From positions 34,271 through 98,270 of the forward strand of contig DXJO01000028.1 of the NCBI GenBank assembly GCA_019057475.1: DNA of 64,000 nt, read 5' to 3'. The notes under the pieces are model-generated. The model did not search any database. It saw nothing but the letters and a program-made list of their open reading frames with translations, and was not told where the DNA came from. Made by a program: the position numbers and the translations under genes. Of the stretch, positions 43,757 through 64,000 are shown piece by piece. The stretch's first letter is position 1; each line of letters starts with the position of its first letter. The DNA is from Candidatus Thorarchaeota archaeon (GTDB lineage Archaea > Asgardarchaeota > Thorarchaeia > Thorarchaeales > Thorarchaeaceae).

Positions 43757-46600
43757 CTACGATAAACCCGCTTGCTGCAGGATGCACATCTTGATCTCTC
43801 GAGGGCTGAATCTTAGCGTGACCTTGCTCTCATGAACAGAATGTTCCTTGAGTGTCGCTCCATCGATTCTCACTTCCGTGACCTTCGTAACTTGCCTAAT
43901 CACCTTCATCTCAGTAGCTTCGTCATTGTTCTTCAAGTTGAACATCGTAACCATTACAGAGCCATTGCGAACTCGTAGCGAGGAGATTCTCACATTCGGA
44001 TTGCTCAGCTCGATAATTGGTTCAAGCAAGCTGACGTTTGGCTCTGCTTGGTCTAAGGCGATTGCTATCACATCCTGCGAGCCTGCTTCTGCGTGTTCCG
44101 CACTCATGTACAACGGATCGCCAGCCGAATGCAATAGAAATCCATACGGAAATTCATAGTCTGCGCCCATCTCTTGAGCCCCTTGGGTTTCCTCAGGCGG
44201 TCCTGCATGAATGGGTCTTTCAGGGTAGTCGGAACGCGAGAGCCAGCCTACGGAACGGACAAGTGTGATTGCGATCCTTTTCCTATCTACTAACTCAACC
44301 TCTGGCATTCCTTTGTTGAAGACTGTGATAGCATCACCGCTTTCCTCATTTTCGACTCTGATGAATCGCTTCTGAGGTTGGATGCCAGAAGGCATCTCAG
44401 GATACGTGGATTTGGTCCTCTCAAGCTCCGAGGCATCCGGGATTCTCTCCGCATCTGCCTTTCGTGTCACGCATCCTAGATGGGTTGCGGTCCGTGTTAG
44501 CTCCGAACTGAATGGGAGGTCAAAGCAGATTCTGAGCCTATGGTCCTTGGCAGTGTTTGTCAGTTTAGTTGTGACTTCGATTCGAGGCGTATCACGATAG
44601 AATCTGAAAGTTGACTCGATTGGTATCTCTACCTTGCCAACGCGCTTCTCTCTGGAGTCATCTAGGGTTTCAAACAGTTCAAGGGCCATTGTCTGGCGAA
44701 TCTCGGCCATGACTGGCCCATTGCTCATAATGAATCGTTTGACATTCTTTACCTTGACCTTCTCCGGTTCCACTCTGCCAAAGGTGTACACATCACCTCG
44801 ATCACCAAAGTCCTCGAAGGCATGAAGTCTTTCGTATCTCTGGCCAGTCATTGCGTTAACAGCATTGAATGTTCCATCCTTGTTGAAAGTGATTGAATAG
44901 AATCTGTTGCTTACATGGTTCTTGCTTGCATCAAAGGTATCACTGGATACGGATTTGGGGGTTTCATCAACTGGGTTTAGCTGTGTGAATGCCCATGGTT
45001 GGAGAGGAATGACGGCCGCATAGACACTTTGACTTGGACGCACTGCGACGAGGTGTATCCTTTTGTACCGCTTGCTCTTTATCAGCTCGTGAGCTTGCTT
45101 CTTGAAATCCTCCATGTCAAAGTCGCCCACAGGCTGTCTGTCTGCGATAAGCCTTAGCTCAAGGAGACCTGGCTCGTCGCCATCATAGTGCTCGAAGTCA
45201 TTGATGTAGAAGTTGATGAGTTTCCTGCCGGGTAGCATTGCAATCCCCATCTTTGCAGTAGTCATACCCACTGTTGTTTCCAGAAAGACATCCTCCTGAA
45301 CCCTGACTGGTTGGACGCTGTAGATTGTCCCATCGGGCGCTTGCAGCCCCTTGACACTCCTCTCTCTGGGTTGAGAAAACTCAATACGAACTGGGGTTTC
45401 CAAGCTGGTTCCAGAAGTGAAAGCAAGGATGCATGATTTGTCAGATGGGTTTGATGTTTCCTCAATGGTCTTGACTGCTCCAATGACAATGCTTTCTGCA
45501 ATCGACTCGGACCATGAGAAACGCACCTTCATCTCAGCATGGGTCTGGTCAGCTGAGCAACCGCAGATGGAGTCGTGGGGGTGATTCCGGAGTAGCCATT
45601 TCCACGCGGTTTCGAGAAAGCTGGTTGGATACGAGTGTCCTAGGTAATGCCAGAGATACGCACTGACGGGCTCCGCTTTCAGTAAGAGTATATCCTCAAC
45701 CTTTTGATTCCAGAGCTTAATCCACATGCGGGTTGAGTAGGTGTCCTGTAGTAGAGGAGCTCTGGCAGGAGACCGAAACTCACCTGCATACACTGGGGGA
45801 TTGTAATTCGATTCAGTTACTGCCTTCTCCAGCGCCTCGACATAGTGGTTAAGAAAACCAAGAGTGACGTCTTGCCCTTCTTGTTTCATTTTCTCTGCGT
45901 GCTCCTGGATGAACGGCTGGGGGTGGAGATGGTCAGACCCATTCATCATCAGGTACAGTGGGAGGGGCGAGAATGGCTCCAACTCAGTAACGCTCTCGTT
46001 GATCTTGTCAACAAATCCGTCATAGCTCCCTGGGAATCTAGCGACATTACCATAGCCGCCGGGCAAATAGACACCGAGTATCGATGCTGAGGAAGTTGGA
46101 TGTGATTTCCAGGTGAATGGCACTGTCATGATGTCTGGCGGCACTCCTCTCCAGATAACGGCTGCCTTCAAGTTGGTGAGGTCACCTATTAGCTGGGGAA
46201 TAACGCTCGAATGCCCGAATTGGTCTGGCAAATATGCAACCTGCATCATGGGGATGTCGAGCTTCGTTCCTAGGCCATAGCTGTACTCTAGGTTGCGAAT
46301 CAGGCTCTCACCGCCAACTAACCACTCATCAGGCAGAATGTACCACGGTCCCACGGCAATCTTCCCTTGCCGGATCCATTGCAGTAGCTCCTCCTTTCGC
46401 TCAGGGCGGATCTCGAAGTAGTCCTCTAAGACAACCGTCTGGCCATCTAACATGAACATGAAATCCTGTTGTTTCAGCGTGTCAAGGAGCTCGTCGATTA
46501 GCTCGACCAGCATGTATCTGAATCTCTGAAATGGCAGATACCATTCTCGGTCCCAGTGCGTATGCGGGACAATGATGATCTTCTTGGCGTCCATGTCCAT
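43757..46600 (-). CDS. GH38 alpha-mannosidase
   Basis: HTHWDREWY, LDGQT, GPWY..PDE, PDQFGH, NG.DH, HDSICGCS. Confidence 0.92.
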   Translation of the reverse strand: MDMDAKKIIIVPHTHWDREWYLPFQRFRYMLVELIDELLDTLKQQDFMFMLDGQTVVLEDYFEIRPERKEELLQWIRQGKIAVGPWYILPDEWLVGGESLIRNLEYSYGLGTKLDIPMMQVAYLPDQFGHSSVIPQLIGDLTNLKAAVIWRGVPPDIMTVPFTWKSHPTSSASILGVYLPGGYGNVARFPGSYDGFVDKINESVTELEPFSPLPLYLMMNGSDHLHPQPFIQEHAEKMKQEGQDVTLGFLNHYVEALEKAVTESNYNPPVYAGEFRSPARAPLLQDTYSTRMWIKLWNQKVEDILLLKAEPVSAYLWHYLGHSYPTSFLETAWKWLLRNHPHDSICGCSADQTHAEMKVRFSWSESIAESIVIGAVKTIEETSNPSDKSCILAFTSGTSLETPVRIEFSQPRERSVKGLQAPDGTIYSVQPVRVQEDVFLETTVGMTTAKMGIAMLPGRKLINFYINDFEHYDGDEPGLLELRLIADRQPVGDFDMEDFKKQAHELIKSKRYKRIHLVAVRPSQSVYAAVIPLQPWAFTQLNPVDETPKSVSSDTFDASKNHVSNRFYSITFNKDGTFNAVNAMTGQRYERLHAFEDFGDRGDVYTFGRVEPEKVKVKNVKRFIMSNGPVMAEIRQTMALELFETLDDSREKRVGKVEIPIESTFRFYRDTPRIEVTTKLTNTAKDHRLRICFDLPFSSELTRTATHLGCVTRKADAERIPDASELERTKSTYPEMPSGIQPQKRFIRVENEESGDAITVFNKGMPEVELVDRKRIAITLVRSVGWLSRSDYPERPIHAGPPEETQGAQEMGADYEFPYGFLLHSAGDPLYMSAEHAEAGSQDVIAIALDQAEPNVSLLEPIIELSNPNVRISSLRVRNGSVMVTMFNLKNNDEATEMKVIRQVTKVTEVRIDGATLKEHSVHESKVTLRFSPREIKMCILQQAGLS

Positions 46601-47270: not shown

Positions 47271-47363
47271 TCAGACCAACATGTGCCTGAATCTCTGAAA
47301 TGGCAGATACCATTCTCGGTCCCAATGGGTGTGTGGAACAATGATGACCTTTTTGGCGTCCAT
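47271..47363 (-). pseudogene. Duplicated 5' fragment (30 codons) of the GH38 gene
   Basis: MDAKKVIIVPHTHWDREWYLPFQRFRHMLV* versus MDAKKIIIVPHTHWDREWYLPFQRFRYMLVE. Confidence 0.9.
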
Positions 47364-47515
47364 CTACGGCATCTCTCTAGAGTGCAGATTACATCTCCTC
47401 GTTACGTTTCTATTCGGTTCGCATGGCTTGCTCATTCGCAATAACAAGTCCCAAAGCTGGGATAATGGAGCCAAAGAAGAAAGGTCATTAGTTTTGATTT
47501 GGATATCTTTCCAAT

Positions 47516-59313: not shown

Positions 59314-59793
59314 TTGAAGGTTACAAATACCCACTTTCGAACATTACCAAAATCGATGTCTGTAGTTTCAAGGCTGCTTGAAACCCTAGCAACTGATAAC
59401 GATGCTTTTTGGCCAAGTGAGAAATGGCATCCCATGCGATTCAAGGATGGGGTACGCGTTGGGTCTCGTGGAGGACATGGACCAATTAGGTATAGCGTTA
59501 AAGAAATCGTTCCTGGAAAAGGGATTGAGTTTCAGTTCGAGAAACCAAGTGGATTTCATGGGGTTCACGGTTTCATCTTGGAGGAGCAGACTGAATCTCT
59601 TACGCTTTTGAGTCACTATATACGGATGAAGACTACTGGGAAGTCTATCTTGTCTTGGTGGTTTATCTATCGACCTCTTCATAATGCTCTGATTGAGGAC
59701 TGCCTTACAAAAGCTGAGCGAAGTCTTGAATTGACCCCAAAGCGGAAGAAGTGGAATCTCTGGGTTCGCTTTCTACGGAACGTCTTATCATAA
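59314..59793 (+). CDS. SRPBCC-like hypothetical protein
   Basis: WP...W.PM, GGHGPIRY.V, F.G.H.F, RPLHNALIED. Confidence 0.7.
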   Translation: MKVTNTHFRTLPKSMSVVSRLLETLATDNDAFWPSEKWHPMRFKDGVRVGSRGGHGPIRYSVKEIVPGKGIEFQFEKPSGFHGVHGFILEEQTESLTLLSHYIRMKTTGKSILSWWFIYRPLHNALIEDCLTKAERSLELTPKRKKWNLWVRFLRNVLS

Positions 59794-60037
59794 CTGTTCT
59801 CATACTCATTCACGTGATATTAGAAAGACTACTAAAATCCAGATACGAGGATATCAAGCACCTCTTTGATATCGAAAACAAATGGAATAAGGAAAGTGAT
59901 CGTCGTGCTAAAGATCCAGAATCTGTGAAGAACGAGGATGCTCCCACGGATAACAAATGGTTCTGATATAGAACTGATTTCTCCATCTCTTGCACCTAGT
60001 GCTATGGAGAAGACTGAATGCCCAATGCAGACAAGCT

Positions 60038-60110
60038 TTGCCGATATCATTAAAATCCAAAGCGCTGTGCTTCACTTTAGCTGAGCCGGTTTGGCGGAGT
60101 AGCTTGCGAT
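60038..60110 (+). pseudogene. Displaced copy of tRNA-Cys promoter and 5' half
   Basis: TTGCCGATATCATTAAAATCCA (21/22 identical to 62225-62246), then GCCGGTTTGGCGGAG identical to the tRNA 5' end. Confidence 0.8.
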
Positions 60111-60254
60111 TCTTCCTCGTAGAACAAGAATGAGAAAGCATTTTCAAGAAAGACTCAATTGAATCTCATAACGGTTCGAGTCGGTATTGATTTAAGCCCC
60201 GTATGAGATTGCTTCTGTGCATCTTCTTGAAAGAGGAGATGAGTTGGTGTTAGG

Positions 60255-60635
60255 ATGGAGATAAAGACAACAACAAAGTATACGTTCTTGATTAATTTCC
60301 TGATAGGTATCTTCTTTGGATTCTCTATGCTTGTGATTCCAGAGATGTACTTCGATCTCACAGGCTGGCTCGAAGAGCTATATCTAGCTCGAGTTGTAGG
60401 ACCATTCTTTATGGCTATTGCGATTGGTGCTCTGCTTGCCTTTAGGGAATCAGATTGGGAACGCGTTGAGATATTCGTCTATATGAACGTGATATTGAAT
60501 TTCCTTGGTCTTGTGGGATCCGTATGGAGCATGCTCATTATGACTCTGCCAGTCATGGGCTGGGCCTACACAGGTATATGGGCATTTTTGCTTCTGTTGT
60601 ACTTCTACGTATACTACGTACAGAAGATGAAGTGA
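60255..60635 (+). CDS. 4-TM small membrane protein
   Basis: Paralogue of 63279..63665 (LTGW, LA.R...W..VE..V.M). Confidence 0.8.
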   Translation: MEIKTTTKYTFLINFLIGIFFGFSMLVIPEMYFDLTGWLEELYLARVVGPFFMAIAIGALLAFRESDWERVEIFVYMNVILNFLGLVGSVWSMLIMTLPVMGWAYTGIWAFLLLLYFYVYYVQKMK

Positions 60636-61031
60636 ATCCATTAGCGTTCTGTGTTGGAATAATGTAGGCGTAGAATGTGAGGCTGTGTGTGTGCGACACA
60701 TAGTGCTTACTCTACTAGGGTTTTTCCAAGACGCATCACAGGCAAAATAGTAAGTGAGGGGATATTTCCCCATCACTTTTTTTCTGGAGCTATAATATTA
60801 TGTGCCATTTTTGCCGAGATTCGGGCAAAGTTTTAAGGATACTGCAGGATGTGAAAATATAGAAATGAATGAGACATATCGTAAGTTTCACAGGAAAGCC
60901 TGTAGACATCTATCACCTGCAGTAAGAGGAAAGATAGAGCGATGGTTAGAGCTCTATGGTAGGATAGAGCTCTATGGTAGATTTCCTCGATTATCTATTA
61001 ATAAGGGTTGTGCAAGAACCCTGCACAATCG

Positions 61032-61877
61032 CTAGAGTTCAGGTGGTCCCTGCTTGACTCGTTTCATCATATCTTTAGGAGTCTTTCCCCAATCTATGAG
61101 ATACTCTAGCCACCAAGTCATTCCTGCATCAGCGCATGGTTGAAGCTTCTCAGAGTCTGCTTTCCTGTCATTGCCTGAAGTATTACCTGAAACCACAATA
61201 TCATAGTTCAGGAGATTACCTCGTTCCTTCTCTATGATTGAGAGTGACTCTTTCATTCCCTCAATGGTCAGCCCATCTTCCCCGTCCGCAAGAGGAAATA
61301 CTCCATCATATCGTGCTGCTCTTTTGAAAGGTGCTTTCTTTGGCCAATAGCCTGCAACCCAGATTGGTATCTTCTTCTGGATCGGTTTTGGGAGAAATGT
61401 CACTTCCTTCTGCTGATAGTACTCTCCCTCAAAAGAGAATGGTTCACCACTCCAGAGACCTGTAAGGACTTCGAGCCCTTCGTCTAACATCTTTGCTCGA
61501 ACTTTTGGATCAGAGGTTTCGCCAAAGTGATCGAACTCCTGTGAGGAACCTCCAAGACCTACACCCATGATTAATCGACCGTTTGAGAGGTGATCAAGTG
61601 AAGCAGTTTCTCTTGCAAGTTTTGATGGTCTCCTACGGGGAATTGGTGTGACCATAGGACCTATCATAATCTCTTCAGTTTTAGCAGCAACAGCAGCCAT
61701 TACAATCCATGGATCTACAACTCCCATAGTACCTTCCCAGCATGCCCAGATGTGGTCCCATATGAAGAATCCATCCCACCCTGCATCTTCTGCTGCCAAT
61801 GCAAGGTCTACATGAAAATCTATTCCCTTGCTTCCATTTCCATAAAGGAAACAATATGGGTATATACCATACTTCAT
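61032..61877 (-). CDS. LLM-class (luciferase-like) flavin/F420-dependent oxidoreductase
   Basis: AEDAGWDGFFIWDH, DPW, RRRP.KLARE.ASLDHLSNGR, IPIWVAG. Confidence 0.9.
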   Translation of the reverse strand: MKYGIYPYCFLYGNGSKGIDFHVDLALAAEDAGWDGFFIWDHIWACWEGTMGVVDPWIVMAAVAAKTEEIMIGPMVTPIPRRRPSKLARETASLDHLSNGRLIMGVGLGGSSQEFDHFGETSDPKVRAKMLDEGLEVLTGLWSGEPFSFEGEYYQQKEVTFLPKPIQKKIPIWVAGYWPKKAPFKRAARYDGVFPLADGEDGLTIEGMKESLSIIEKERGNLLNYDIVVSGNTSGNDRKADSEKLQPCADAGMTWWLEYLIDWGKTPKDMMKRVKQGPPEL

Positions 61878-62224
61878 TTTACATAACCTCTGAAAATTGA
61901 TAGCTATAATCCCTGCTTTACTACTATTTAGCAGTTCCACTCATTTACTCCGAGTGAAGATTATCCACATCCTTCTACCGACGTTTGAGAATAATGACAA
62001 AAATGACTATGAGAATTCCCGTGGTTCCGATAATAACAGATGTATATAGATTAAGAGGTGTTTCCACATCTGTGGTGTTCATTGAGGTTCCAGTGACGTC
62101 TATGATGATTACACTGAGGAACTCTAGGCAAAATTTGCAGATTTCTTTAATACTATATGCAGCAACCCTAAAACTTGATGTGGGTATAGTATTTCTGCAG
62201 TATCCTTACAAACTGCACGACTTC

Positions 62225-62246
62225 TTGCCGATATCCTTAAAATCCA
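62225..62246 (+). promoter_or_regulatory. Probable BRE/TATA promoter of tRNA-Cys
   Basis: CCGATATCCTTAAAA; the motif ends 24 nt before the mature 5' end; conserved in the second copy. Confidence 0.65.
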
Positions 62247-62270
62247 GTCAGGGGTGGAACTGCATGGCAA

Positions 62271-62345
62271 GCCGGTTTGGCGGAGCAGTTACGCGATGGA
62301 TTGCAGATCCATTCTACTTGGGTGCAAATCCCAAAGCCGGCTCCA
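62271..62345 (+). tRNA. tRNA-Cys (GCA), intronless, CCA encoded
   Basis: Acceptor GCCGGTT/AGCCGGC, anticodon arm ATGGA-TTGCAGA-TCCAT, T arm TTGGG-TGCAAAT-CCCAA, discriminator T then CCA. Confidence 0.95.
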
Positions 62346-62389
62346 CTTCTTTTCGGTGAGCAAATCTTTAATCGCAATATCTGGTTGCG

Positions 62390-63130
62390 ATGACTATGCC
62401 TCATAGACCATTGAAGGGTTACTCAGCAATCTCATTCGATATAGGTGGCACATTGATCAAACCTTTCATTCTCCCTGTCTTTGAAGTCCACAAGAAATTC
62501 ATCCACCAGGTGTGTGGTGATGAATGTAGCTTCTCTGATGAGGAGATTGCAGACGCAATCGATGTGGCCGAAAAAGAAGTATGGGAACTAGTGCCAGAAA
62601 AGGATGTCAACTATTTCTTTTCAAATGAGGATTGGACAAAGCGCAATCGCGTTATCCTGAGAACCCTTGGAATTACTGAAATGCTGGATGAACGTGCTAG
62701 CCATATGCAGACGCTGTGGACGGAGATTCTTGCGGCCAATCCCCACAAATTGAAACCTGATGCAAAAGAAGTTCTCGAACAACTGAAACAACGTGGATAT
62801 ACTCTGGCTATCTCTACCAACTGGTATGATCCGCGTGAGCTCCTCACTTCCTATGGAATCTATGATATGTTTCAGAGCATCCAATTCAGCATCGTTCCAG
62901 GTTATTGTAAACCTGCTCCATACATGTTGATACAAAACGCCCGTGAGATGGGTGTCAATCCGTTAAAGTGTGCCTTTATTGGTGACGACATCAAGCGGGA
63001 TATTCCAGCCGCCAAGAGTGCAGGGATGCATCCCATCTTGATTGTCAATGAGGGCAAAGAGATAACCCCCGGTGATGACGGCTTGACAGTCATTCACGAA
63101 CTGAATGAGCTGCTAGAATTGTTTGATTGA
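62390..63130 (+). CDS. HAD-superfamily hydrolase
   Basis: FDIGGTL, STN, KP.P, FIGDD...DI..AK.AGM. Confidence 0.9.
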   Translation: MTMPHRPLKGYSAISFDIGGTLIKPFILPVFEVHKKFIHQVCGDECSFSDEEIADAIDVAEKEVWELVPEKDVNYFFSNEDWTKRNRVILRTLGITEMLDERASHMQTLWTEILAANPHKLKPDAKEVLEQLKQRGYTLAISTNWYDPRELLTSYGIYDMFQSIQFSIVPGYCKPAPYMLIQNAREMGVNPLKCAFIGDDIKRDIPAAKSAGMHPILIVNEGKEITPGDDGLTVIHELNELLELFD

Positions 63131-63278: not shown

Positions 63279-63665
63279 ATGAGCGAAAATATCAGTAATA
63301 TTGCTAGGTATGTTTTTCTGCTGGCCTTCATTGTTGACTTGATTTTCGGAGTGTGGTATTTCATATCTCCTGAATCATGGACCGCTTTAACCGGATGGCC
63401 GACTGAAACAGCTTCTGGTCGTATGCTGGGTGTTGCTATCATTATGCTCGCAGTTGGTTCTATCTTGGCCTATCGAGCGACTTCGTGGGGGCAGGTAGAG
63501 CTCTATGTTATGATGGAGATCGTCTGGAATCTCCTAGGTGTCATAGGCATGATCTGGAACTACGCGACAATGACCCTTCCTATCGCTGGGTGGTTCATGA
63601 CCGGCCTTCTGGCGCTATTCCTGCTTCTGTTTGTGTATGTATATTATCAGGCCAAACAGACTTGA
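63279..63665 (+). CDS. 4-TM small membrane protein
   Basis: Paralogue of 60255..60635. Confidence 0.8.
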   Translation: MSENISNIARYVFLLAFIVDLIFGVWYFISPESWTALTGWPTETASGRMLGVAIIMLAVGSILAYRATSWGQVELYVMMEIVWNLLGVIGMIWNYATMTLPIAGWFMTGLLALFLLLFVYVYYQAKQT

Positions 63666-63849: not shown

Positions 63850-64000
63850 CCGTTGCCCGAAACCTAGACAATCCTGGACACCAAGGTCATGAACTGATGT
63901 TCGGTTCCTGCTTCATCGAGGTTGCTTTTTGTTAATTCTGAAGAATTAACTGAAAGTCTTACGTCCTCTCCACGGGCATTTTACGTCCCCGGCCAACTGA
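63850..64000 (-). mobile_element. tnpB: 3' end of tnpB / omegaRNA scaffold and right end of an IS607- (or IS605-) family element, truncated by the window
   Basis: Minus strand AGTTGGCCGGGGACGTAAAATGCCCGTGGAGAGGACGTAAGAC...GCAACCTCGATGAAGCAGGAA...GTCTAGGTTTCGGGCAACGG; one frame reads SWPGT*NARGEDVR, typical of TnpB tails. Confidence 0.7.

Follow-up and report, generated by a model that had tools for sequence, protein, structure and literature searches.

A truncated, g3-like tRNA-Cys allele with its promoter upstream of the intact tRNA-Cys gene in a Thorarchaeota genome

The tRNA-Cys locus and its upstream partial copy

The locus described here belongs to a metagenome-assembled genome of a Thorarchaeota (Asgard) archaeon, denoted G000 (assembly of 3.34 Mb, 96% complete), and lies near the end of the window, the 64,000-nucleotide stretch of one contig that was analysed. 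Its features are as follows (g3 and similar labels denote genera).

60038..60059, plus strand: promoter copy A, a BRE/TATA-type tRNA-Cys promoter, TTGCCGATATCATTAAAATCCA
60060..60084, plus strand: spacer A (5′ leader), a foreign, g3-like allele
60085..60110, plus strand: tRNA-Cys 5′ stub, similar to the 5′ end of the intact tRNA, not a tRNA
60255..60635, plus strand: membA, 126-aa multi-pass membrane protein without a Pfam family, co-oriented with the stub
60948..62016, minus strand: horizontally exchanged block with the gene of a luciferase-like (LLM/F420-type) oxidoreductase (CDS 61032-61877, ORF to 61940)
61975..62082, minus strand: ORF of a 35-aa single-pass membrane peptide in the promoter-proximal block
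62225..62246, plus strand: promoter copy B, native, at the right junction of the insert
62247..62270, plus strand: spacer B, native to the genus
62271..62345, plus strand: intact tRNA-Cys(GCA), called by ARAGORN and Rfam (52.8 bits)
62390..63130, plus strand: HAD-family hydrolase (PF00702, 2.4e-28), native downstream neighbour
63279..63665, plus strand: membB, native paralogue of membA

A repeat search finds the two promoter segments, 60038-60059 and 62225-62246, identical at 21 of 22 positions. The tRNA 5′ end is duplicated as well: over tRNA nt 1-19 the stub (60085-60103) and the intact gene agree at 18 of 19 positions, the repeat search pairing 60084-60102 with 62270-62288, and the similarity reaches about nt 26 if a 2-nt gap is allowed, while with the tRNA-Cys alleles of relatives the stub matches contiguously up to tRNA nt 21. 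The spacers between promoter and tRNA are unrelated, since the 26 nt preceding the tRNA start have 11 positions in common in copies A and B, compared with a family median of 12-13. In these three respects (promoter duplicated at 21/22, tRNA similarity to about nt 26, unrelated spacers) the original prediction, made from the sequence of the window, is borne out.

With up to 3 mismatches the promoter 22-mer occurs at just these two sites in the entire 3.34-Mb assembly, and the first 15 tRNA bases, with up to 2 mismatches, at the two copies and at two unrelated sites with 2 mismatches each; chance is excluded as the source of the repeat. ARAGORN and Rfam find an intact tRNA-Cys(GCA) in the assembly at 62271-62345 only. 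At the stub ARAGORN reports no tRNA with thresholds lowered to 85% of default, and Rfam has no match at E≤5.

Provenance of the two copies and of the insert

As a reference for the native arrangement a same-genus genome of about 90% nucleotide identity (G004) was used. Promoter, spacer, tRNA and HAD gene are the same there as at copy B (97-100% / 90%), with homology beginning at 62222. The promoter of G004 is preceded by a family-typical, ancestral-type extension (...tgccatt...), that of copy B by the end of the LLM block. Spacer B agrees with the G004 spacer at 23 of 26 positions and with the next best allele at 17 of 26. Because G004 shares promoter B, spacer B, the tRNA and the HAD gene behind the ancestral-type extension, the comparison clearly identifies the intact tRNA-Cys with promoter B and spacer B as the native arrangement of the genus. 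G004 is not a clean empty site, since its own upstream region is rearranged (a truncated GNAT gene and an inserted NTase/HEPN pair), with the right junction in the ancestral form. Upstream of 60037 no homology to G004 or to a further genome, G001, rises above shuffled controls, which leaves the left junction without an anchor.

Copy A has a different affinity. Its promoter is one base off the allele of the g3 genomes G086, G087 and G091, an allele identical to copy B, and its spacer agrees with those of G087, G091 and G086 at 19-20 positions against a family median of 13, in a comparison resting on 26 nt. Copy A as a whole (60037-60108) matches g3 tRNA-Cys loci contiguously, spacer included, at 88% over 68-72 nt (G086, E=1.7e-19; G087, 1.1e-18), as opposed to two short blocks only with copy B of its own genome. 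This clearly points to copy A as a truncated tRNA-Cys allele of foreign, g3-like affinity. The earlier proposal that an island had supplied the promoter and replacement half of the intact tRNA is consequently not supported in this genome, G004 showing copy B as native and copy A being g3-like. It had also been suggested that both parts were under selection in separately evolved copies. Separate evolution as parts of working tRNA-Cys genes is supported; on the explanation favoured below, the promoter and the first ~20 tRNA bases would appear selected because the working genes belonged to different lineages, and not through a present function of the stub.

Of the genes in the insert, membA encodes a protein 38% identical to that of membB, the two being the sole such paralogues in the genome; its best match among 86 family genomes is 47%, and homologues at 80-86% are found among metagenome proteins (P0001-P0008). 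The LLM oxidoreductase (Pfam PF00296, 2e-47) lies in a block that is 85-91% identical in nucleotides to genomes of genera g3, g5, g7 and g11. Its third-codon identity between genera is 77-84%, in contrast to 37-55% for the neighbouring HAD and membB genes, whose third codon positions are saturated between genera; the value for LLM is thus at the level of the HAD gene between G000 and G004 (79.6%), that is, of orthologues within a genus. Identities among the LLM proteins fall into two groups, 85-93% and 59% or less, and the six remaining genomes of the genus yielded no LLM of this type. The pattern shows horizontal exchange of the LLM block, as the prediction of an acquired island between the copies had implied. 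Closer to the tRNA, the segment 61982-62246, promoter included, is approximately 88-92% identical to G056 (g5) and approximately 78% to G022 (g2). Both homologies stop within promoter B, and this places the right junction of the insert at the promoter. A foreign origin is accordingly indicated for 60948-62246 and may extend to 60104-60947.

Downstream, the HAD protein is 86% identical to that of G004, compared with 68% (73% in nucleotides) for G008 and 70% in nucleotides for G086, both of g3, and the stretch from HAD through membB is 89% identical in nucleotides to the same-genus genome G005. In nucleotides, membB has matches of approximately 70% in G073, where the gene concerned immediately follows tRNA-Cys, and in G044, where the paralogues are found a few kb downstream. 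LLM genes of the exchanged type occur no more than 3 kb upstream of tRNA-Cys in G073, G092, G093, G044 and G056. In G073 the order is compact (LLM, promoter, tRNA-Cys, memb), and the insert of G000 is a circular permutation of it.

An integrase was not detected in cis at the insert of G000. Pfam searches of the sizeable ORFs of 59314-62356 gave none, the small ORFs of the insert contain no remnants, and no int(N) or int(C) fragments occur in or beside it. PF00589 has no match on this contig of G000 and none at all in G061, G056, G091 and G093, four family genomes with stubs described below. Recombinases and replication modules are likewise lacking in the insert of G000, in the scanned ORFs adjoining the stubs of G061 and G057 and in the insert of G099; of enzymes of this kind G099 has a DDE transposase only. 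Exact IMG/VR scans for a viral or plasmid attP with the promoter and the tRNA 5′ end returned chance matches in unrelated phage genes only, and an exact scan of metagenome contigs for population variants of the stub junction a single unrelated one.

Recurrence at tRNA-Cys and at a second anchor

At least five independent tRNA-Cys 5′ stubs are found in other genomes of the family, 1.5-10 kb upstream of the intact tRNA-Cys, namely in G061 and G075 (counted as one shared event), G057, G056, G091 and G093. Insertion on the 5′ side of this tRNA, as originally proposed, is therefore a recurrent arrangement in the family. The stubs end at tRNA nt 10-26 in six genomes, and those of G000 and G061/G075 have the same apparent 2-nt gap; such clustering could mean site-specific crossover in the D-arm and not general recombination. 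In two genomes, G056 and G075, it is the stub that has the common local allele, the allele of the intact gene being unusual, so that the predicted polarity of a replacement half, not supported for G000, seemingly holds there.

Two complete tRNA-Cys genes in relatives had been named as a sign of simple decay. This was found in part: G099 carries a pair of complete alleles (392 bp, 83% identical) 9.8 kb apart with ABC-transporter cargo between them, and G061 also has two complete copies, and decay of a once-complete second copy is thus possible.

The promoter is kept where a co-oriented gene follows the stub (G000, G061 and G075 16/17 each, G057 15/17) and has decayed where none does (G091 14/17, G056 12/17, G093 none); these scores were counted by eye on few cases, with G061 and G075 being one event. 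Further promoter-plus-stub cases in G000 were sought, none of them clear: 5′ copies of tRNA-Ala proved to be uncalled intron-bearing tRNA genes, and 5′ copies of tRNA-Tyr were rejected as lacking a promoter.

Elsewhere in the window a protein-coding gene shows the same signature. The start of the GH38 gene is repeated over 90 nt (46505-46600 and 47274-47369, 88.9% identical), with about 0.7 kb of inserted DNA, lacking in G004, between the two copies; for this event a clean empty site exists. The signature at the GH38 start argues against site specificity.

Models for the origin of the arrangement

Insertion-duplication by recombination at the conserved promoter and tRNA 5′ end is the explanation we favour, with a confidence somewhat above even. 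About 2.2 kb of DNA from related Thorarchaeota would have recombined with the chromosome inside the strongly conserved tRNA-Cys promoter, bringing in a promoter with its own spacer, the 5′ part of a tRNA-Cys (or a complete gene that was shortened afterwards) and the genes for membA, the LLM oxidoreductase and the small membrane peptide. The 22-bp promoter and the ~20-nt tRNA 5′ end would have served as anchors for homology-driven recombination. The event would resemble a Campbell-type single crossover of a circular piece: spacer, stub and cargo of the incoming DNA would come to lie upstream, and the resident tRNA would keep its own spacer and stay whole, preceded by a second copy of the promoter; the position of the crossover would decide whether the incoming or the resident promoter serves the tRNA. 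That there was one event, that it passed through a circular intermediate, that the recombination was homologous and that membA uses the displaced promoter is our inference. As to the last, the ATG of membA lies 170 nt downstream of the stub start and promoter A is its putative promoter, now probably driving it, with TTTAAG at approximately 60190 as a possible alternative.

In Campbell-type insertion-duplication, known mainly as a laboratory tool or from plasmid integration, a circular molecule with the 5′ portion of a gene produces a truncated upstream and an intact downstream copy. The layout of G000 is predicted exactly, and the flanking repeats are, as expected, two diverged alleles of the same locus, of which one is foreign. 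Also predicted are the service of the gene by either allele, depending on the crossover point, and the same signature at anchors other than tRNA genes, as at the GH38 gene start. We know of no description in Asgard archaea of natural, recurrent insertion-duplication between genera that uses 20-nt anchors at a tRNA promoter. No donor genome combining spacer A, membA and the LLM block was found, and the insert may hence stem from two or more events. On the favoured explanation the locus would be a concrete, datable case of gene flow between genera of Asgard archaea without recognisable mobile-element machinery, in which a conserved tRNA promoter and 5′ end form the landing pad and the scar provides a spare promoter reusable by an incoming gene. 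Horizontal swaps could then affect the promoter and spacer alleles of a tRNA gene whose tRNA sequence appears vertically inherited.

An old in-situ tandem duplication of promoter, tRNA-Cys, possibly HAD, and memb is considered unlikely. The upstream tRNA would have decayed, LLM would have arrived later and independently, and promoter A would have been kept for membA. The sole paralogue pair of the genome does lie with one member downstream of each promoter copy, tandem memb paralogues beside tRNA-Cys are common in the family, and G099 and G061 have their two complete tRNA-Cys genes; moreover, the 80-86% membA homologues from metagenomes could come from unsampled species of the same genus. At 38% memb protein identity, however, neutral bases should be randomised, yet the stub agrees with the intact gene at 18/19 and its spacer with g3 alleles at 19-20/26. 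Furthermore, copy A aligns contiguously with g3 loci and not with copy B, and it was found in none of the other, incomplete genomes of the genus.

An integrase-type island in the tRNA-Cys 5′ half, whose own promoter and replacement half would now be working with copy A as the displaced native part, is considered rather improbable. Its model is the pTN3-like (SSV-type, 'suicidal') tyrosine integrase elements of Thermococcales, which integrate on the 5′ side of tRNAs, and use the tRNA 5′ half as attB, so that one end of the integrated DNA bears the displaced native promoter plus tRNA 5′ half and the other a reconstituted tRNA; genes of the element can be read from the displaced tRNA promoter (PMC8371274). 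In these elements integration splits the integrase gene, whose promoter then serves the restored tRNA. The order of stub, cargo, promoter and intact tRNA in G000 is that of a 5′-half integration, with a direct repeat of the tRNA 5′ part (stub 60085-60105 versus 62271 onwards) at its flanks; the D-arm clustering of stub ends and the allele distribution in G056 and G075 agree with it as well. Unlike in pTN3-like elements, the insert has neither an integrase nor an int(N) or int(C) fragment, both copies have a genuine tRNA-Cys promoter, and the repeats are inexact, diverged alleles with the junction of the shared block in the promoter and not in the tRNA. The native promoter also appears to have stayed with the tRNA, as island-free G004 has promoter B, spacer B and tRNA in their ancestral-type context, and copy A is g3-like.

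A related comparison is offered by the tycheposon-built islands of Prochlorococcus, where a tRNA hotspot has cargo between full and partial tRNAs, repeated events and remnants; tycheposons encode tyrosine recombinases and replication modules, and duplicated promoters are not described there (bioRxiv 10.1101/2020.12.28.424599). The partial tRNA copy bounding cargo beside a full tRNA is shared with G000, whose scar differs in comprising the tRNA 5′ end plus a promoter and in which no recombinase was found. More speculatively, and in our estimate improbably, the unusually conserved promoter element (~27 nt) together with the first ~20 tRNA nt would be the attachment site of a cassette-exchange system, trans-acting or integrase-free, which builds swappable cargo stacks on both sides of tRNA-Cys in Thorarchaeota, moves them between genera and, in an integron-like manner, reuses displaced promoters for captured genes.

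A misassembly, in which the contig joined two Thorarchaeota populations at short conserved promoter and tRNA sequences, is very doubtful. The genome is metagenome-assembled, copies A and B represent distinct alleles and the intervening DNA is similar to that of other genera, but the longest exact shared words (16, 11 and 10 nt) are judged too short to mislead an assembler. A chimera would change organism once, whereas in G000 native DNA borders the insert to the left (orf159 91% to G001) as well as to the right (tRNA through membB 89-90% to G004 and G005). Similar layouts are also seen in other, separately made assemblies, among them G044 with its one 3.16-Mb record under the title 'chromosome'.

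Split tRNA genes, as in Nanoarchaeum and Caldivirga, have a 5′ tRNA piece with its own promoter, depend on a 3′ half encoded apart from it that has a complementary leader, and lack an intact gene. The stub resembles such a piece, with promoter A intact-looking and correctly spaced to the stub start and a T-loop-like GGTTCGAGTC at 60173-60182, but a functional 5′ half or a tRNA-derived or structured RNA, both earlier offered as alternatives, is scarcely credible: a complete tRNA-Cys is present, and assembly-wide searches for a T-arm with acceptor 3′ strand, or for a 5-bp/7-nt hairpin followed by RRCCGGC, fit the intact gene only, in an assembly 96% complete. A tRNA interrupted by an unusual intron, or an RNA resembling a tRNA, was rejected on the ARAGORN and Rfam results and on the ordinary fold of 60078-60260 (z = -0.84; 37 of 200 shuffles fold as well), and the sequence downstream of the stubs varies between genomes. 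In annotation, promoter-plus-stub relics of this type risk being read as split tRNAs or small RNAs.

The duplicated tRNA-Cys start

tRNA-Cys(GCA) is encoded once in the assembly (3.34 Mb, 56 contigs, 96% complete), of which the window covers C8:34271-98270; the gene lies at 62271-62345. The repeat search pairs its promoter, 62225-62246, with 60038-60059 at 21 of 22 positions and its start, 62270-62288, with 60084-60102 at 18 of 19 positions, while the 26 nt preceding each tRNA start agree at 11/26, which upholds the original prediction of a duplicated tRNA-Cys promoter and 5′ tRNA part with unlike spacers. Genome-wide, the 22-mer is found with up to three mismatches at these two sites only (60038 and 62225), and the initial 15 bases of the tRNA, two mismatches being allowed, in both copies and in two unrelated matches. 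Many tRNA genes of this genome contain introns. A BRE-like stretch with TTTAA/TTAAA lies about 35-45 nt ahead of its other tRNA genes, and therefore the repeated 22-mer resembles a tRNA promoter both in form and in where it lies. The locus is arranged in the following order.

Features of the tRNA-Cys locus
60038-60059, promoter of copy A
60060-60084, spacer A
from 60085, 5′ stub of tRNA-Cys
60255-60635, membA, membrane protein of 126 aa without Pfam family, downstream of the stub
61032-61877, minus strand, luciferase-like oxidoreductase (PF00296)
61975-62082, minus strand, membrane peptide of 35 aa
62225-62246, promoter B
62247-62270, spacer B
62271-62345, intact tRNA-Cys (copy B)
62390-63130, HAD hydrolase, after promoter B and tRNA
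63279-63665, membB, membrane protein, after the HAD hydrolase

The two membrane proteins are 38% identical and the sole such paralogues in the genome; homologues of membA at 80-86% are metagenome proteins only. A weak RAGATH-18 match at 63905-63976 on the minus strand (26.1 bits, below the gathering score of 44.9; E = 0.13) adjoins the contig end, where an IS/TnpB end is suspected from sequence alone. Ahead of tRNA-Cys, an element of about 27 nt, tGCCAnTTTTGCCGAYATCCTTAAA, is kept across at least nine genera (e.g. L013 15455-15493, L064, L065, L084), far more strongly than the BRE/TATA of the other tRNA genes, and is absent elsewhere in the genome; it may be a regulator or a recombination site.

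Origins of the two alleles

Copy A (60037-60108) was compared with 86 family genomes and aligns without a break, spacer included, to the DNA ahead of tRNA-Cys in genus g3 (G086 and G087 88%, G091 85%, G097 82%, G008 81%), whereas against copy B of its own genome it yields two separate short blocks only. For spacer A the agreement with G087, G091 and G086 is 19-20 of 26 positions (median 13 across 42 alleles), and the D-loop variant GAGTAGCTT is of the g3/g5/g7 type, unlike that of this genome and its congener G004. Because of the contiguous match, the spacer affinity and the D-loop type, copy A is an allele from another lineage, where it evolved as part of a functional tRNA-Cys gene; this explains why promoter and tRNA bases are kept and the spacer is not. 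The earlier proposal of separately evolved, selected copies thus holds for working tRNA-Cys genes in different lineages; selection on the stub itself is not needed to explain the conservation pattern.

Copy B is compared best with G004, which is collinear with the window at about 90% DNA identity. Homology to G004 restarts at 62222, three bases ahead of promoter B, and continues through spacer B, the tRNA and the HAD gene; spacer B agrees with that of G004 at 23/26 positions, the runner-up allele at 17/26. The extension immediately upstream of the G004 promoter, ...catgccatta, is common to most family members and is replaced here by ...actgcacgacttc, the end of a block common to G056 (genus g5, about 88-92%) and G022 (genus g2, about 78%). 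Their homology ends within the promoter; from there on, spacer and tRNA variant are particular to each genome. On these alignments, at least the 3′ part of promoter B, spacer B and the tRNA are native, with foreign DNA adjoining or entering the promoter. The idea that an island brought the promoter and 5′ half serving the intact tRNA consequently finds no support in this genome, since these parts are common to G004. In G004 itself (L013 14258-15230) a truncated GNAT gene is separated from tRNA-Cys by a nucleotidyltransferase-like and a HEPN-like gene, so labelled from their sequences; on either side of the pair lies a direct repeat some 18 nt long, tcacactccttccatcct, at ~14259 and ~15205.

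Horizontal exchange and recurrence in the family

Part of the DNA between the copies, 60948-62016, is 85-91% identical to that of G073 (g5), G092 and G093 (g3), G044 (g11) and G046-G050 (g7), in agreement with the acquired island proposed originally. Third-codon identity of the oxidoreductase between genera (77-84%) is at the level of a within-genus ortholog (79.6% for HAD between this genome and G004), far above the 37-55% of HAD and membB between genera; therefore this DNA moved horizontally. Oxidoreductase protein identities are bimodal, 85-93% in eight genomes and at most 59% for the remaining matches. Together with a pseudogene in G056 the type is present in nine other genomes, in five of them within 3 kb upstream of tRNA-Cys; on the stretches examined around it in the four g7 genomes tRNA-Cys is not present, and none of the six remaining congeneric genomes (52-92% complete) showed the type. 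No donor was found, and the left junction is unanchored, as the DNA upstream of 60037 has no match in G004 or G001. At the start of the shared block (60947-60990) an 18-nt unit occurs twice in tandem with the palindrome TAGAGCTCTA inside; G092 has both too.

Stubs of the tRNA-Cys 5′ end, ending at tRNA nt 10-26, are also found 1.5-10 kb upstream of the intact gene and in the same orientation in G061 and G075 (a single shared event), G057, G056, G091 and G093. The promoter is near-intact (15-16 of 17 core bases) where a co-oriented gene comes next, namely membA here, an alpha/beta hydrolase in G061/G075 and a flavodoxin-like gene in G057, and decayed where none does (14/17, 12/17, unrecognisable). 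This suggests that the displaced promoter is reused by the gene behind the stub; the cases are few and partly related. In G056 and G075 it is the stub that has the locally usual spacer class, and the spacer of the intact gene is of an uncommon class; there, unlike in the genome under study, the tRNA seems to be served by the incoming promoter, as the original replacement-half reading had it.

Two complete tRNA genes in relatives, named originally as a sign of simple decay that would tell against the island reading, are found as an intermediate state in G099 and G061, so that a second copy, complete at first, may have decayed. In G099 two alleles in 392-bp repeats, 83% identical (L096 6348-6738 and 16189-16579), enclose 9.8 kb coding for an ABC transporter of the MacB/FtsX type and a DDE transposase; in G061 there are two complete copies besides fragments. 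Furthermore, several genera (L093, L094, L095, L016, L152) have 3′ fragments (T-arm and acceptor) at 0.5-3 kb downstream of the complete gene, and the 3′ side of tRNA-Cys is therefore also a hotspot.

Mode of insertion

The compact order of G073 is oxidoreductase, promoter, tRNA-Cys, memb. The insert, which runs from promoter and spacer A through stub, membA, oxidoreductase and peptide to promoter B, is circularly permuted relative to it. A circularised copy of a G073-like locus recombining with the resident promoter would give this order; if crossovers fell anywhere in the short homology, either allele could end up serving the tRNA. Neither integrase nor integrase fragment was found in or beside the insert, PF00589 has no match on the contig of the window or anywhere in four stub-bearing genomes, and the G099 insert contains no integrase. 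The first ~90 nt of a GH38 (alpha-mannosidase-like) gene are likewise repeated, at 46505-46600 and 47274-47369 (88.9% identity), on either side of some 0.7 kb of inserted DNA, and G004 (L013 10555-10715) has a single copy without insert, a clean empty site; this is the same insertion-duplication signature at a protein-coding anchor. Owing to the missing integrase and this second case, homology-driven insertion-duplication is favoured over a site-specific enzyme, although the latter could account for stub ends that cluster in the D-arm.

Among described systems, the pTN3-like integrase family of Thermococcales comes closest: it uses a tRNA gene's 5′ half as attB, and after integration the native tRNA promoter reads into DNA of the element (PMC8371274). 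Its defining split integrase and element-borne tRNA promoter are both absent here. Hotspot logic is in common with tycheposon-built and other tRNA-anchored flexible islands with partial-tRNA scars, although tycheposon-type islands encode recombinases (10.1101/2020.12.28.424599). The event is regarded as a form of tRNA-anchored island formation that is 5′-sided, promoter-duplicating, integrase-free and between genera.

The alternative of a split-tRNA half or tRNA-derived structured RNA is very unlikely, as no second T-arm and acceptor strand is found anywhere in the assembly, ARAGORN reports no tRNA at 59900-60700 with thresholds lowered to 85%, Rfam has no match over the stub region at E<=5, and the fold of 60078-60260 is not better than shuffles (z = -0.84). 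A T-loop-like GGTTCGAGTC at 60173-60182, in the leader between stub and membA, mismatches the tRNA-Cys T-arm, and a tRNA fold is unsupported. Elsewhere in the genome, two near-identical repeat copies (C29:128309, C45:165) contain the tRNA-Tyr start, ~21 nt with one mismatch, without the tRNA promoter. An intron-bearing 'tRNA-Stop (tta)' called by ARAGORN at C54:106528-106620 (Rfam tRNA score 56.7 bits) is likely a misplaced intron call. Five additional 3′ ends of tRNA-Ala(CGC) with at most one mismatch (C9:1795, C9:2738, C21:77262, C21:78948, C21:80689) look like stacked integration scars on two contigs.
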